This document shows positions 44,406-64,000 of a stretch of 64,000 nt of DNA, in pieces. Source of the DNA: Shigella phage JK42. The notes under the pieces were generated by a model. It had not been told where the DNA came from. It made no database searches and saw only the letters and a list, made by a program, of their open reading frames with translations. The stretch lies in the sequence record MK962756; one strand, written 5' to 3'. Position numbers and translations under genes: made by a program. Each line of letters opens with the position of its first letter. Within the stretch, counting starts at the first letter, position 1.

Positions 44406-44876
44406 TTAATCATGTTTCCACACCCCATCGGTATTTGACCAAAGTCGCTGATTATCTGATCCTCGCCACAGCTTTTTAGTCGGAAGATTTTTCTCATACT
44501 TCCCATCAATAATAACATCAACATATTTAAGCATTTCTAGTTGTTTAATATCTTCAAACTTATATCCTGTCCACAACCAAATGCTTTTATTGGGATAAAG
44601 ATTTTTTACTGTTTGAGCAATGCAATGAATAACATCTCGGTTATCAGGATAGAGAGGGTCACCTCCGGTTATAGTTAATCCTTCTATATAATCATTATTC
44701 AAACATTCAATTAACTGTTCTAGTGTTTCACCAGTGAATGGAACACCATTTCTAGCATTCCATGTTGATTTATTATAACACCCTTCGCATTTATGCAAAC
44801 AACCCGTAACGAAAAGAACGACCCTGCATCCAGGGCCATTCACAAAATCGCAAGGATAAAATCTATCATAATTCAT
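44406..44876 (-). CDS. nrdG: anaerobic ribonucleotide reductase activating protein (radical SAM)
   Basis: 156 aa; Cys cluster CLHKCEGCYN and overall NrdG-like sequence. Confidence 0.88.
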   Translation of the reverse strand: MNYDRFYPCDFVNGPGCRVVLFVTGCLHKCEGCYNKSTWNARNGVPFTGETLEQLIECLNNDYIEGLTITGGDPLYPDNRDVIHCIAQTVKNLYPNKSIWLWTGYKFEDIKQLEMLKYVDVIIDGKYEKNLPTKKLWRGSDNQRLWSNTDGVWKHD

Positions 44877-46690
44877 TGGTGTTTAACCCTATGCATGATT
44901 TCTTTATTTTTACCGAGATTAAATCCGCGTTCGTTCGGATTTCCCAAATAACCACATGTTCTTCTTATTGTGTTCATCTTTTTAGGATCAGTTTCTCCAC
45001 AAATAGAACAAACAAATCCGTTTTCAGTAGGAGTCATTTCATGGGTACTTCCACATGTAAAACATTTATCCACTGGCATATTAACACCAAAATAATCTAA
45101 ATGTTGTGCAGCATAATCCCAGACGGCCTCAAGTCCCTTTAAATTGTTTTTCATATCTGGAAGTTCAACATAAGAAATGTGACCACCTGTCGCTATGAAA
45201 TGATATGGCGCTTCACGAGAAATCTTTTCAAACGGAGTAATATTTTCTTCTACTGAAACATGGAAACTATTAGTGTACCAACCTTTATCAGTAACATCCT
45301 TTACACTTCCATATTTTTCTGTATCAAGTTTACAGAAGCGGTAACAAAGGTTTTCAGCAGGAGTAGAATACAAACTAAAAGCAAATCCAGTTCTTTCGGA
45401 CCACTGTTTAAGATGAGCATTCATTTTAGTTAAAATTTCTTGCCCAATATCACGACCGACAAGAATATTCAATTCGTGAATACCAATGTATCCTAAAGAC
45501 ACTGAACTTCTACCGTTTTTAAATAACTCAATTATGTCGTCATCAGGTTTAAGACGAACCCCGAATGCACCTTCTTGGTAAAGAATAGGAGCAACAGTCG
45601 CTTTAACTCCTTTTAAGGAACTAATTCTACACATCAAAGCTTCAAAACACAGATCCATTCGTTCATTGAACAATTCGATAAATTTCTGTTCATTGAACTG
45701 TGTTCCAATATAAGAATCTAGCGCAATACGAGGAAGATTTAATGTTACAACACCGAGATTATTACGTCCATCAAGAATTTCATTACCAGTCGAATCTTTC
45801 CATACGCTCAAGAAACTACGGCAACCCATCGGAGAAACAGGAACTGAAGAACCGGTAATAGCTTTATTATTCTTAACCGAAATAATGTCAGGATACATTC
45901 TTTTGCTTGCACATTCTAACGCAAGTTGTTTAATATCATAGTTTGGATCATCTTTATAAAGATTAACACCTTCTTCAACAAACATAACAAGTTTAGGAAA
46001 AATAGGAGTTATTCCATCACGACCAAGACCTTTAATGCGGTTTTTAAGAATTGCCTTCTGAATCATTCGTTCAGTCCAGTCAGTTCCCGTACCAAATGTA
46101 ATTGTTACAAAAGGCGTTTGTCCGTTTGAACTAAAGAGAGTATTTACTTCGTATTCATAAGCTTGGAATGCGTCATAGACATCTTTTTCTGTTTTAGATT
46201 GAGCATAATTCAACGCATCAGCGATTTGCCATTTTTCTGCATCTTCAACATGTTTAGCGTATGTGCGTTTAACATAAGGAGAAAGAACTTTATCTACATT
46301 CGCAAATGTAGTTCCGCCATACTGGTGTGAAGCAACTTGTGCGGTAATTTGTGCCATAATTGCAGTAGCAACACCAATCGATTTAGGCGTTTCAATTTGA
46401 GCATTGCCTAATTTAAATCCGTTCTCAAGCATTCCCTTTAAATCTACTAAACAGCAATTAGTAAAAGGCAATGATATACTGTAATCTAAATCGTGAAAAT
46501 GAATTAACCCGGCATTATGAGCATTTACAATATGGCTCGGAAGAATACTACAAGCGATATGTTTAGAAACAATACCGGCCATTAAATCTCTTTTTGTTGG
46601 AAAGACACGAGAATCTTTGTTGGCATTTTCGGTATTTAATTCTTTATCTTTATTTGAAATAAAATTTAAAACATCTTTCTCTAAAGACAT
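44873..46690 (-). CDS. nrdD: anaerobic ribonucleoside-triphosphate reductase
   Basis: 605 aa; C-terminal zinc ribbon CFTCGSTHEMTPTENGFVCSICG and glycyl-radical region RTCGYLG; uninterrupted (no intron). Confidence 0.9.
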   Translation of the reverse strand: MSLEKDVLNFISNKDKELNTENANKDSRVFPTKRDLMAGIVSKHIACSILPSHIVNAHNAGLIHFHDLDYSISLPFTNCCLVDLKGMLENGFKLGNAQIETPKSIGVATAIMAQITAQVASHQYGGTTFANVDKVLSPYVKRTYAKHVEDAEKWQIADALNYAQSKTEKDVYDAFQAYEYEVNTLFSSNGQTPFVTITFGTGTDWTERMIQKAILKNRIKGLGRDGITPIFPKLVMFVEEGVNLYKDDPNYDIKQLALECASKRMYPDIISVKNNKAITGSSVPVSPMGCRSFLSVWKDSTGNEILDGRNNLGVVTLNLPRIALDSYIGTQFNEQKFIELFNERMDLCFEALMCRISSLKGVKATVAPILYQEGAFGVRLKPDDDIIELFKNGRSSVSLGYIGIHELNILVGRDIGQEILTKMNAHLKQWSERTGFAFSLYSTPAENLCYRFCKLDTEKYGSVKDVTDKGWYTNSFHVSVEENITPFEKISREAPYHFIATGGHISYVELPDMKNNLKGLEAVWDYAAQHLDYFGVNMPVDKCFTCGSTHEMTPTENGFVCSICGETDPKKMNTIRRTCGYLGNPNERGFNLGKNKEIMHRVKHQ

Positions 46691-47502
46691 AATTCTAATT
46701 TATCCTTTTGAAATTCTTCGTCTAAATATGGGTTCCAACCCATTTTAAACCTTTTGATGAAATTATCAATTCTAAATTTCGGTAAGTTTAAATCCGCAAA
46801 AATAGATGATTTACTTTTAAAATCTGGACCTAAATAATCATATAAAATTTCTGCGTATTTTAACCATAATATATAAGTACCAGATTTAATTGCTCTCGGA
46901 GTTTTCCAAGGTTTTACGCCGTACATCGGATTTCCACTTCCTTTATGCCTGATAGAAGATGAAATTCCAATTTTAATTTTAGCTTCCTTTGTGTGCGAAA
47001 ATCCATGATGTGGATTTTCTTTCCAGTATTTTTTAGAAGCTTCTGATATTTTCTTTCTGGCTAAATTAGTATGATGCTTTCCATAAAATCCATGATTTTT
47101 ACCTTTATTACGATTTCTTTTAATCATGGTTATTGATTGCTTTTCTCTAGTTTCTTTAGAAGGAGAAACACCGTACGTTGTAAATTGACCATTAGCATAT
47201 GCTAAATTAAAATACTCTTTATTCCATATATCTTTTTCTATATTCTTTTGAAATTCAGCTTCAATGCTAGTTATTTGTTCATCTCCGACTAATTGAAAAT
47301 ATAATATTTCAACTTTCGGTGTTTCTTTCAACAGAGCTTTTTGAAATTCGGAAGATGACGAAGACGAATAATAAAATTTACCATTTTTATCAATAATATT
47401 CGTTCCGTCAAAAGTGCAATTGGTTTTACTTCCAATATAATAATATGGCGGGGTTTTAGCATTAATTCTACTAATAAATGATAGTTTATATACTACATTC
47501 AT
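46681..47502 (-). mobile_element. free-standing GIY-YIG homing endonuclease (Seg-like)
   Basis: 273 aa; N-terminal VYKL...YYIGSKT GIY-YIG-type motif, basic C-terminal region; wedged between 49 and nrdD, overlapping both. Confidence 0.55.
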
Positions 47503-47972
47503 TTTAAACTCTTTCTAAGCTGCTTTTTGAATGAAGCTATTAATTGTGTTTTAGTATCAGATTCATTATATTCAAATCCTCTTTGAAGCATCTCAGCCAT
47601 CATTTCCTCTTTACCTAGTCTTGAGAACTCTTTAGTTTTGTCTGGAACAAAATTAGGATGGATATTATTATCAGAATAATCTTGTTTCAAATAAGCAAGA
47701 AGAGATTCAAGCCATTCGAGGTAGTCGACATCACGACCTTTAAGACCAGAACGGTTGAACTTATGCTTCATTTGGCCTTCTGCTGCGTTGCACAGATTAC
47801 AGAGTAACCCACGAACTCTACCTGCTTTTGGCCCGTTTAATTCGTGGTCGTGGTCAAGATGGTTACCTTGAACATCAGGGTCTAATTCACGGTGGCAAAT
47901 AGGACACTTACCATTCTGTGCATCATAAAATTTTTGTTTTTCTTCTTTATATTTTGCGCCTGATAATAACAT
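47499..47972 (-). CDS. 49: endonuclease VII (Holliday junction resolvase)
   Basis: 157 aa; MLLSGAKYKEEKQKFYDAQNGKCPIC...HLDHDHELNGPKAGRVRGLLCNLCNAAEG... matches remembered T4 gp49. Confidence 0.92.
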   Translation of the reverse strand: MLLSGAKYKEEKQKFYDAQNGKCPICHRELDPDVQGNHLDHDHELNGPKAGRVRGLLCNLCNAAEGQMKHKFNRSGLKGRDVDYLEWLESLLAYLKQDYSDNNIHPNFVPDKTKEFSRLGKEEMMAEMLQRGFEYNESDTKTQLIASFKKQLRKSLK

Positions 47973-61257: not shown

Positions 61258-61796
61258 TCTTTTATTTCCAGTAGTTTATTTGATTTAAGGTAATTAGCCT
61301 TTTCTAGGACTTCAGAAGCATATTTACTTCCGGCACTTGTCTTCCATCCCGCATTATATGAGGATATAGCTTTTCTTATATCCCCGTTATGTATATTTAA
61401 CCAATAAGAAAATTCGATATAAGCCCATCTGGCTGAATTAGACCGCTTAGATAGCATTTTCTTAATTTGGGCATCAGTCATATTATAACCAAGCTGGTTA
61501 ATTCTTGCCCTCATTGTCGGTAGATAATTTTGGAACATTCCATACGCATGGTGACCTTTCTTATCTTTAAGATTAATACCGGCAGATGATTCCTGCCATA
61601 GTATTGCGGCCATTATGTATCCAAGTCCTTTCTTATGCATATTTTCATGCGTTTTAAATTTTCCATCCTTAGAAAACTGTTCCCCAAACTGATAAGCATA
61701 ATTCAAGTTATCGAGTTGGACATTACTAAAAGTATGCTCGGAGCTATGTGCTGATAATGAAAGAGCAAATAGACCAGCGAGTAGTGCTTTTCTCAT
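61254..61796 (-). CDS. secreted lytic-transglycosylase-like protein
   Basis: 180 aa; signal peptide; ...IMAAILWQESS...AYGMFQ resembles the SLT-domain catalytic ES and GLMQ-type motifs. Confidence 0.5.
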   Translation of the reverse strand: MRKALLAGLFALSLSAHSSEHTFSNVQLDNLNYAYQFGEQFSKDGKFKTHENMHKKGLGYIMAAILWQESSAGINLKDKKGHHAYGMFQNYLPTMRARINQLGYNMTDAQIKKMLSKRSNSARWAYIEFSYWLNIHNGDIRKAISSYNAGWKTSAGSKYASEVLEKANYLKSNKLLEIKE

Positions 61797-61804
61797 GTTT
61801 ACCT

Positions 61805-62263
61805 CTAGATTTTAATCACTGCTTTAGAAGCTTTTCCTGGTAGTCGTTTGTTGTTAATAATAGCCATTCTGCATTGAAGAGTCTTCATTTTGAATGCCGG
61901 ATTTTCGCGACAAACTGTAAGTCCTAACCAAAGATTTCCATCAGTTATTTCTAAACGACCCGGGCGATATTCGACACCTTCGACAAAATCTTCATCAACA
62001 TCTGGACGTGCCGGCATTGATAAAAATTCTGCAACTTCTTTAACATGATTTTTTACTTTATGAAATAATTCAAAAACGTAATTCTCATCTATTTCTCTCT
62101 GGATGGCACGATCTAAGAGATGTTGAGAATACTTGATATGAAAGCCTGGTAGTCCAAGAGACTTTGCAGCATCTTTTATACCGGCATTTATTTTGCGGAA
62201 CTCCGTTTCAAAGATTCGACGGAGTTTATTACGGCGGATAAAAACGTCTGAATTGATAGTCAT
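61805..62263 (-). CDS. regB: RegB site-specific endoribonuclease
   Basis: 152 aa; MTINSDVFIRRNKLRR...HIKYSQHLLDRAIQREIDENYVFELFHK...RLEITDGNLWLG...QCRMAIIN..RLPGKASKAVIK matches remembered T4 RegB. Confidence 0.9.
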   Translation of the reverse strand: MTINSDVFIRRNKLRRIFETEFRKINAGIKDAAKSLGLPGFHIKYSQHLLDRAIQREIDENYVFELFHKVKNHVKEVAEFLSMPARPDVDEDFVEGVEYRPGRLEITDGNLWLGLTVCRENPAFKMKTLQCRMAIINNKRLPGKASKAVIKI

Positions 62264-62324
62264 TTTGATTTCTCCTCTAGTTGACAGGTCTATAGTAACA
62301 CAACTAGAGGAGAAGTAAACTACT

Positions 62325-62540
62325 TTATTGATAAAATGGAGTTAAAGCCCAAGATTCTTTAGATACCATATTGGCGAAATGCCTCATCTCTTCGATTTGG
62401 CGTCGACGCTGGTCAGCATAGTCTTCTTCGCCTTCTTCCTTACAATCTTCAAGGTCTTCTTCAAGATACTTTAAGTATTCACTACAAATTTTGTTGACCT
62501 TTTCTTGAAAGTCCAATAACCCAGTAATAGTAGAAGCCAT
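62325..62540 (-). CDS. hypothetical small acidic protein
   Basis: 71-aa ORF. Confidence 0.4.
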   Translation of the reverse strand: MASTITGLLDFQEKVNKICSEYLKYLEEDLEDCKEEGEEDYADQRRRQIEEMRHFANMVSKESWALTPFYQ

Positions 62541-62806
62541 TAGTATTTTTCCTCAGGTCGAAATACTGCACGACACGCCCACATGCTGGCTTCTTTTAGA
62601 TGTTGCTTAGCATACTTAAGAGCCTGCACTGCATCCATATCTTCTTTGGTTTGTTGCTCTGTTTCATTTTCTTTCAAGATATATGCTTCTTCAATCAGAG
62701 CATCAAACAACAATCCAAGACGGACTTCTGCATCTTTAATAGCGTTCACTTTACCGATTTTATCATCGGTATGCGGCTTGTAGCCTTTGATGTCTTCAAT
62801 CGACAT
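62540..62806 (-). CDS. hypothetical protein
   Basis: ORF-track 62540..62974 shortened to the internal ATG at 62806, which has GAGGA upstream. Confidence 0.4.
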   Translation of the reverse strand: MSIEDIKGYKPHTDDKIGKVNAIKDAEVRLGLLFDALIEEAYILKENETEQQTKEDMDAVQALKYAKQHLKEASMWACRAVFRPEEKY

Positions 62807-63020
62807 AAGGAATTTCCTCATCGGTGGCAAGGTCATATTCGACCAATTGGATAGGCTCATTAATACCATATCCACGTACAGTGATATCAGTTGTCGGATA
62901 GTTTCCAGTAATATCACCCATTCTAAATGATTCAATGAATGATTGCTCGCCTGAGCAACTAAACCAGGCGGCAAAACATTTTAAAACATCTTCAGACCCT
63001 TCTATAATCAATTTAGCCAT
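62796..63020 (-). CDS. hypothetical small acidic protein
   Basis: 74-aa ORF. Confidence 0.4.
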   Translation of the reverse strand: MAKLIIEGSEDVLKCFAAWFSCSGEQSFIESFRMGDITGNYPTTDITVRGYGINEPIQLVEYDLATDEEIPYVD

Positions 63021-63382
63021 TATAGACTCTCAGTAAAGGTACGAGCGATAACGTCGCGCTGCTGTTCTGGAGTCAGAGAGTTAAAGCGAACTGCATAACC
63101 GGATACACGGATGGTCAGCTGCGGATATTTTTCTGGATGCTTAACTGCATCTTCTAGAGTTTCACGACGCAGAACGTTAACGTTCAGATGTTGACCACCT
63201 TCAATTTTAACTTTAGGGTGATGTTCAATTTCAATTTCACGGGCATGCAAACCGTAGAAAATTTCCGGGTCTACAATAGCGTCTTCTTTAAAAGTCTTAG
63301 AGACAATAATCCGGGCTTGAGTACCGTCTTCAAAATAAATAGTGCCTTTGTGTGTGCCTTCAAGAATTTGATATGCTTTCAT
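63020..63382 (-). CDS. autonomous glycyl-radical cofactor (GrcA/YfiD-like)
   Basis: 120 aa; C-terminal ...[16 protein letters not shown]... is the glycyl-radical signature (RVSGY). Confidence 0.7.
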
Positions 63383-63388
63383 ATAACC

Positions 63389-63687
63389 TCAATTAGAAAA
63401 TAAATTTATCCAAGTTTTTTCTTTAATCAAAAATGGGTCGGAATTAAACGCCATTAAACTTTGAGTGATTAATCCCTTAAATGGCCCATCAATAAATTCC
63501 ATTTTGAAATGTGGAATACTAGTCATCAGTCGTGCATTAGGAGCAGTACAAAGAACCTGCTGACCTGCGAACGGACCTTTAGTCAAACGATATCGTTTAG
63601 GTTTAAAATGGTAAATCTCATAATTTTCTACAAGAGCCCTTTTATTGCATACCGGGCTATTATAACAATATTCAAAAACTTCAATAG
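63389..63687 (-). CDS. hypothetical protein
   Basis: ORF-track 63389..63760 shortened to the ATG overlapping the upstream stop (ATGATGA). Confidence 0.4.
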
Positions 63688-64000
63688 TGGTCATCATTGC
63701 ATTCCAATCACAAAAAATTGAGGACGAGCAATACCGCCGTTGCAATATTTGCTTTTGCAACAGTGTTGGACTGTTTTAATATGTACATTGTAAATCTTAT
63801 CCATATCAGGAGCTTTAATAGGCTCGTCAATTATATACAGAATACGAGAAAGCGTTAATCCACGGAATTTAGAACCTTCATTGCCAATAAAACTACGAAC
63901 AGAATCAGTAAATAAACGGAATCGAATATCGTCGCTAGAATAACGAGAAAATTCTTTTTCAATGTTGCCAGCAGAAATTTTAGCATAAGCTGAAGTATTA
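63682..64000 (-). CDS. hypothetical protein, 5'-truncated by the window edge
   Basis: Open minus-strand frame from the window end to a TGA at 63682-63684; C-terminus ...HCCKSKYCNGGIARPQFFVIGMQ. Confidence 0.4.

Follow-up and report, generated by a model that had tools for sequence, protein, structure and literature searches.

Two small proteins, YfiD (GrcA) of Escherichia coli and Y06I (~14 kDa) of phage T4, are reported to restore pyruvate formate-lyase (PFL) that has been cleaved by O2 (Wagner et al. 2001, PMID 11444864, work from Knappe's group, as summarized in PMC8683613). According to that summary, the PFL-activating enzyme installs a glycyl radical on the small protein and a complex with the cleaved PFL forms; YfiD and Y06I are there termed the only validated spare-part proteins. 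In YfiD, residues 1 to 60 are disordered and aid cPFL binding and activation, and residues 61 to 127 adopt the fold of PflB residues 693 to 759 and bear the radical (PMC8683613). It is further speculated there that other glycyl-radical enzymes may be repaired by proteins resembling GrcA. A Gly_radical match in the vs.6 product was recorded for six of six T4-like genomes, with a guess at a role in nucleotide metabolism (Nolan et al. 2006, PMC1524935). As T4 encodes one small (~14 kDa) glycyl-radical protein, we infer that Y06I is the vs.6 product. The gene, its family, and its biochemistry are thus already known, having been published from 2001 on, and annotations of the gene appear in many phage genome records. 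In the literature searched, no in vivo benefit or phenotype of vs.6 was found for any phage.

Here, we examine vs.6 of Shigella phage JK42 within a 64,000-nucleotide stretch of its genome (record MK962756; the whole of this stretch is hereafter the window). An earlier note, made from the letters of the window, had placed in it a 120-aa gene for a GrcA-like protein with a glycyl-radical signature, which could serve as a spare glycyl-radical domain for oxygen-damaged PFL. The coordinates given for the gene were exact and agree with the ORF listing, in which it is read from the minus strand (Table 1).

Table 1. Positions, in window coordinates, of vs.6, its subregions and signals, and the other genes discussed
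Feature	Coordinates	Strand	Remarks
vs.6 (phage grcA) CDS	63020..63382	minus	120 aa, ATG start, TAA stop; single ORF in the ORF listing
Glycyl-radical motif (13 residues)	63071..63109	minus	Residues 92-104
Gly95 radical glycine codon (GGT)	63098..63100	minus	Candidate radical site within the 13-residue motif
Shine-Dalgarno sequence (GAGG) of vs.6	63387..63390	minus	Overlaps the TGA stop of vs.7; read from the sequence
Phage-specific 5' half of vs.6	63205..63382	minus	~50% nt identity to E. coli grcA; window-like GC
Host-like core tract, structured glycyl-radical domain	63030..63204	minus	Gene nt 179-353; 4/175 nt differences from E. coli grcA
Last 7 coding nt of vs.6	63023..63029	minus	Gene nt 354-360; phage-specific synonymous differences at nt 354, 357, and 360
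nrdD, anaerobic ribonucleotide reductase	44873..46690	minus	605 aa; Pfam NRDD 3e-171, Gly_radical 1.2e-25
nrdG, radical-SAM activase of NrdD	44406..44876	minus	156 aa; Pfam Fer4_12 4.3e-48, Radical_SAM 1.3e-7
Gene 49, endonuclease VII	47499..47972		Adjoins the NUMOD3 ORF

Over the 1.5 kb surrounding vs.6, identity was 99.9% to Escherichia phage vB_Eco_NicPhage and 97.7% to RB69 (Mosigvirus, T-even), and the window reads as that of an RB69-like T-even phage. The gene order vs.8-vs.7-vs.6-vs.5-vs.4-regB matches that of RB69 and T4, with regB (Pfam REGB_T4, 3.5e-69) and a vs.4/Acb2-type gene lying just downstream. The window protein matched PHROG 1209 (phrog_1209) over its entire length (1.3e-62, residues 1 to 120) and was identical to RB69 Vs.6 at 115 of 120 residues and to the equally long T4 Vs.6 (NP_049730.1) at 113 of 120 (94%). 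The same position between vs.7 and vs.5, together with the 94 to 96% amino acid identity, marks the window gene as the ortholog of T4 vs.6, and the RefSeq name of both the RB69 and the T4 ortholog is "autonomous glycyl radical cofactor GrcA." Six of the seven substitutions that separate the window protein from T4 Vs.6 are N-terminal (T21I, A35S, I36F, H54P, H55Q, K57T); at position 73, the window protein and E. coli have Arg, whereas T4 Vs.6 has His.

Homologs of vs.6 are widespread, with 1,588 phage records returned by tblastn, many of which already carry a GrcA annotation. The T4-like phages among them infect Escherichia, Shigella, Klebsiella, Enterobacter, Citrobacter, Cronobacter, Yersinia, and Aeromonas; T5-like phages of Escherichia and Salmonella were found in the same search.

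Translationally, vs.6 is tied to its neighbors. In addition to a Shine-Dalgarno sequence that overlaps the end of vs.7, its stop codon shares bases with the start of vs.5 (TAATG). A promoter and terminator scan of positions 61700 to 64000 gave counts not above the shuffled expectation and no signal specific to vs.6, and vs.6 appears to belong to a long, translationally coupled unit on the minus strand. The ORF at 62540..62974 (minus strand), the second gene downstream of vs.6, matched Pfam Acb2_Tad1_hairpin (1.4e-17) and is by homology the vs.4 ortholog, predicted to encode an Acb2-type anti-CBASS cyclic-nucleotide sponge. RB69 vs.4 measures 267 nt, and the listed 144-aa ORF, which begins at a TTG, is therefore probably too long, the real vs.4 gene probably spanning ~62540..62806.

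By sequence, the window gene encodes an autonomous glycyl-radical cofactor of the GrcA/YfiD type. The protein is of the small stand-alone form, 120 aa in which a C-terminal glycyl-radical domain is the only domain recognized: Gly_radical was its sole Pfam match (E = 2e-18, 67 bits against a cut-off of 22 bits, residues 60 to 101), and the 13-residue signature that the earlier note had pointed to is present within it and just beyond, at the position listed in Table 1. Among PDB entries, the best match was E. coli GrcA (6OWR, E = 3.5e-42) and the next was the C terminus of PflB (residues 693 to 759, E = 6.7e-27); with 50 of 67 residues identical, this PflB segment, with its beta strand, radical loop, and C-terminal helix, is found duplicated in the C-terminal domain of the vs.6 protein. 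Like the Pfam match, these two are far too strong to be due to chance. Residues 60 to 120 are identical at all 61 positions to residues 67 to 127 of E. coli GrcA, the structured domain of 6OWR. Alignment with E. coli GrcA/YfiD had been proposed as a check, with absence of the conserved glycine motif as the outcome that would speak against a GrcA-like protein. The motif is present and aligned, Gly95 falling opposite G102 of GrcA and G734 of PflB in the conserved loop RVSGYAV, and the loops around G734 of E. coli PflB and G102 of GrcA are identical to it.

The top-scoring NCBIfam equivalog was TIGR04365 (spare_glycyl, 9.1e-47), for which the vs.6 protein scored 158.5 bits and so fell below the curated cut-off of 170, a shortfall that traces to its divergent N-terminal half. 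In view of the biochemistry reported for T4 Y06I, we ascribe this score to where the threshold lies and do not count it against function. The score does mark a real difference from the host, in that the phage N-terminal half forms a lineage of its own. Only weak homology connects the two: the halves are of similar length, that of vs.6 being 7 residues shorter than that of E. coli GrcA, they have scattered residues in common, and the TIGR04365 alignment begins at residue 18, pointing to a weak but real relationship with the host N terminus. Among the homologs collected, T5-like (Demerecviridae) GrcA proteins start with MKAYQNLKSG, T4-like ones with MKAYQILEG, and those of the host with MITGIQITKA; a phage-type N terminus thus seems common to unrelated phage families and distinct from the host's.

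E. coli GrcA (YfiD, 6OWR) is likewise a stand-alone ~14-kDa glycyl-radical protein, but it is encoded by the host's own regulated gene, whereas vs.6 is expressed from a phage gene cluster. Unlike the radical domain of PflB (PDB 2PFL, 1H16), the vs.6 protein comes without the catalytic barrel and Cys418/Cys419 and would act only in trans, on a damaged PflB. GrcA2 and GrcA3 (NCBIfam NF008341 and NF038360) share the radical domain with it (95 to 107 bits) but are proteins of ~80 aa that lack the N-terminal half, and the vs.6 protein scores well under their cut-offs (145 and 158).

The function put forward in the earlier note, a spare domain for oxygen-damaged PFL, is supported by the identity of the C-terminal 61 residues to E. 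coli GrcA and the 94% identity to T4 Vs.6, and we regard it as very probable that the vs.6 protein is a spare part that repairs the host's enzyme. These two identities, the latter for the whole protein and the former for its working domain, are the grounds on which the mechanism described for Y06I and YfiD is transferred to the window protein, and the window allele would be expected to behave like that of T4. The phage would produce the protein during infection, with host genes shut off, from the vs/regB cluster, in which the coupling is seen in the sequence and the timing is suggested by T4 gene order. The protein would dock onto host PflB that oxygen has cut at Gly734, in the C-terminal radical domain, and the host radical-SAM activase PflA would install a radical on Gly95. 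Residues 60 to 120 would then replace PflB residues ~693 to 759, the radical would be passed to Cys419 of PflB, and conversion of pyruvate into acetyl-CoA plus formate, with the ATP derived from it, would resume in microaerobic or oxygen-pulsed cells. The presumed benefit is that acetyl-CoA, formate, and ATP would be kept up in oxygen-exposed fermenting cells once induction of host genes is no longer possible.

Because YfiD's N-terminal half matters for cPFL binding and activation, the divergent half of the vs.6 protein could confer kinetics or a choice of partner different from those of YfiD. Carried further, the same radical chemistry might serve a different or broader job, such as rescue of other host enzymes of the PFL type, TdcE among them, or a decoy action that ties up PflA or cleaved PflB; host fermentation would then be redirected, and the phage-specific N-terminal half would set specificity. 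Such a role would fit the control of binding and activation by this half in YfiD, the N-terminal outline (MKAYQ.L..G) common to unrelated T4-like and T5-like phages, the score under the GrcA equivalog cut-off, and the speculation in PMC8683613 that other glycyl-radical enzymes are repaired. We nevertheless consider it improbable, given that the T4 ortholog, as equated with Y06I, is reported in that source to have restored PFL activity in vitro, that the catalytic half is identical to host GrcA, as a true replacement part requires, and that there is no evidence of inhibition. Repair of host PFL remains the preferred reading.

The earlier note had also described the gene as lying alongside nrdD and nrdG. 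Both genes are indeed present in the window, on the same strand as vs.6, but 16,329 bp and dozens of genes separate nrdD from vs.6, so that there is no physical or operon link between them in this phage. A functional link was weighed as well, namely, that the vs.6 protein might be a spare radical domain for the phage's own NrdD or have some other role in nucleotide metabolism. NrdD, too, is cut at its glycine by O2, and both proteins match Pfam Gly_radical. In Aeromonas phage phiAS5 (NC_014636.1), moreover, a 125-aa GrcA-like gene (nucleotides 301 to 678 of the segment retrieved) with a 13-residue glycyl-radical signature and 42% identity to the window protein shares 4 nt with the end of nrdG and stands ahead of nrdC and nrdH, i.e., it lies truly inside an anaerobic reductase cluster; a role in nucleotide metabolism is also what was proposed in PMC1524935. 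Against this, BLASTP found no similarity between the vs.6 protein and the window NrdD (E = 9.1), the radical site of NrdD is RRTCG580YLG and not RVSGYAV, the vs.6 domain has 100% identity to host GrcA and 75% to PflB, the two genes are 16.3 kb apart in the window, and T4 Y06I, as summarized in PMC8683613, works with PFL and PFL-activase. A nucleotide-metabolism role of this kind is therefore highly unlikely, and on the lack of sequence similarity and the different radical site, the idea of a spare part for NrdD was rejected.

The arrangement in phiAS5 indicates that an "anaerobic module" exists elsewhere, which fits the ecological reading advanced in the earlier note without proving it; adaptation to anaerobic or microaerobic infection, such as in the gut, is a reasonable inference. 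Between gene 49 and nrdD, the window carries a 273-aa ORF with a NUMOD3 match (46681..47502, minus strand; 5.3e-8) that looks like a free-standing homing endonuclease inserted beside the anaerobic reductase genes.

At the nucleotide level, vs.6 has the makeup of a mosaic, in which a phage-specific 5' half is joined to a host-like 3' core. The last 186 nt were identical to E. coli grcA at 178 positions, and all differences were synonymous; the preceding 177 nt showed background identity. A codon-aware alignment with a maximum chi-square scan placed the breakpoint after gene nucleotide 178 (codon 60; 63205/63204), with 50% identity on the 5' side versus 96% on the 3' side, and none of 2,000 permutations reached the observed value. 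T4 and RB69 have the same breakpoint, which corresponds to E. coli residue 66/67, near the boundary between disordered and structured regions of YfiD at residue 60/61. Base composition shifts across it as well: GC is 0.37 in the 5' half, the same as the window average (0.37), with GC3 (0.29) like that of the rest of the window, and rises to 0.46 in the 3' half.

Within the 175-nt core, the differences from E. coli grcA numbered four in the window, all of them synonymous and all GC to AT, two in RB69, and one in T4, the range across related phages being 0 to 4. Of the other genera in the panel shown, Citrobacter comes nearest, with 14 of 175 positions different from E. coli, and Salmonella differs at 29 of 175. 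Enterobacterales with the same 61 GrcA residues are only 80 to 92% identical to E. coli in this segment of DNA, and constraint at the protein level alone therefore cannot explain the identity of the core. GC-to-AT changes account for most of the phage-specific substitutions, the expected course for sequence of host origin that decays within an AT-rich phage genome. Every phage allele examined has its differences from E. coli clustered at gene nucleotides 354, 357, 358, and 360, which suggests that the exchanged patch probably ends inside vs.6, within the last 7 to 10 nt before the stop. In ~638 phage records, the 3' end is 95 to 99.5% identical to E. coli grcA. No description of the mosaic structure was found in the searchable literature, and the identity at the DNA level may have been noted elsewhere.

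A 3' half with near identity to E. coli DNA and a host-like GC could also be read as functionless host DNA that the phage acquired by recombination. This can be given almost no credence. No full-length homolog examined, across several phage families, has an interrupted reading frame, 1,588 phage records contain a homolog, and the domain has accumulated synonymous changes yet not one amino acid change relative to E. coli. The gene is preceded by a ribosome-binding site of its own and shows translational coupling to its neighbors, its phage-type 5' half is conserved across genera, and the T4 protein, again as equated with Y06I, is active according to the account of Wagner et al. in PMC8683613.

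How the core came to match the host was addressed by comparison of nine T-even alleles, of which four were of Mosigvirus type (the window, RB69, and two others) and five of T4 type (T4 and four others). Fixed differences between the two types numbered 10 in the 5' 178 nt, 0 in the 175-nt core, and 1 in the tail (Fisher p = 0.0017). Divergence within each type was similar in both halves of the gene, indicating that the core is not simply slow to mutate. One allele of each type (L098, Mosigvirus type; L100, T4 type) had a core identical to that of E. coli grcA, which puts the E. coli sequence at the center of a star of phage alleles. Together with the Klebsiella phage alleles described next, these results favor a more recent history for the core tract than for the 5' half.

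Alleles from Klebsiella phages bear on the same question. That of Klebsiella phage KMI12 (Jiaodavirus) has the same phage-type 5' half, with 72% nucleotide identity to the window, joined to a core that is closest to K. pneumoniae grcA (10 differences in 175 nt versus 22 from E. coli). Of the 22 sites that separate the two hosts, 16 have the Klebsiella state and 4 the E. coli state in KMI12, and its BLAST identity over nucleotides 4 to 176 was 94.8% to K. pneumoniae and 87% to E. coli. The core of a Jiaodavirus-type allele from IMG/VR (L123, IMGVR_UViG_2974754850_000001) differed from K. pneumoniae at 6 of 175 positions and from E. coli at 23; no other phage allele seen came nearer to K. pneumoniae grcA. 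The comparison covers these two Klebsiella-type alleles and one K. pneumoniae sequence, and the match to the host (6 to 10 of 175) is looser than that of the T-even core to E. coli. The vs.6 match in L123 spans 359 nt, a length not divisible by three, and yielded only a 243-nt ORF fragment; the irregular length may reflect a frameshift or a sequencing error.

The grcA sequences of K. pneumoniae and A. caviae used here were taken from chromosome-sized PLSDB records. Several PLSDB "plasmids" of 4 to 5 Mb (CP125156.1, NZ_AP026896.1, and three others) are evidently whole chromosomes, an example being a K. pneumoniae "plasmid unnamed2" of 5.37 Mb. Among IMG/VR contigs labeled viral, one contains an entire host-type grcA (MITGIQI...), with the Yersinia gene as its nearest match in the panel, and 12 contain the 3' end of pflB; probably, these sequences are flanking host DNA included at the margins of prophage calls and do not belong to phages.

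The Klebsiella-type tract, together with the 10 versus 0 fixed differences among T-even phages, suggests repeated conversion from host to phage. The catalytic half would have been reset again and again to the grcA of the current host by short-patch gene conversion in the course of infection, with crossovers inside the ~185-nt homologous tract; Escherichia-type tracts in Tequatrovirus and Mosigvirus and Klebsiella-type tracts in Jiaodavirus would in this manner have come to sit on a common, independently evolving N-terminal half. We rate the chances of this account as about even. A single capture of the T-even core tract, followed by its spread from phage to phage, would also give zero fixed differences.

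The conversion pattern was seen only in T-even phages of E. coli and, less tightly, in Jiaodavirus-type alleles of Klebsiella. The alleles of T5-like phages, Slopekvirus, Pseudotevenvirus, Karamvirus, Krischvirus, and Aeromonas phages had no near-identical host gene in the panel (at least 25 differences in 175 nt), and the T5-like 3' halves were not close to any host gene in it (at least 40 of 175). Tequatroviruses propagated on Yersinia or Citrobacter retained the E. coli-type tract, which implies that the tract goes with the lineage of the phage and its principal host rather than with the host of isolation.

A parallel may be drawn with the psbA genes of cyanophages, which are reported (Zeidner et al. 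2005; Sullivan et al. 2006) to be mosaics of host and phage sequence produced by exchange of segments within the gene. In that system, a host metabolic gene carried by a phage exchanges segments with the host's copy, which is the likeness to vs.6. The gene, the hosts, and the phage group are different, however, and in vs.6 only the functional half of a very small gene takes part in the exchange, which brings that half to near identity with the host.

If the repeated conversion is real, and is selected and not neutral, the spare part would thereby stay an exact match for the PflB and PflA of the host. The mosaic would in any event be a very clean, small natural case of host-to-phage gene conversion and is possibly worth a short follow-up. 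As to the gene itself, vs.6 is a good textbook case of a repair part for a host fermentation enzyme borne by a lytic phage and, together with nrdD and nrdG, fits a view of T-even phages as equipped for oxygen-poor, fluctuating habitats such as the gut.
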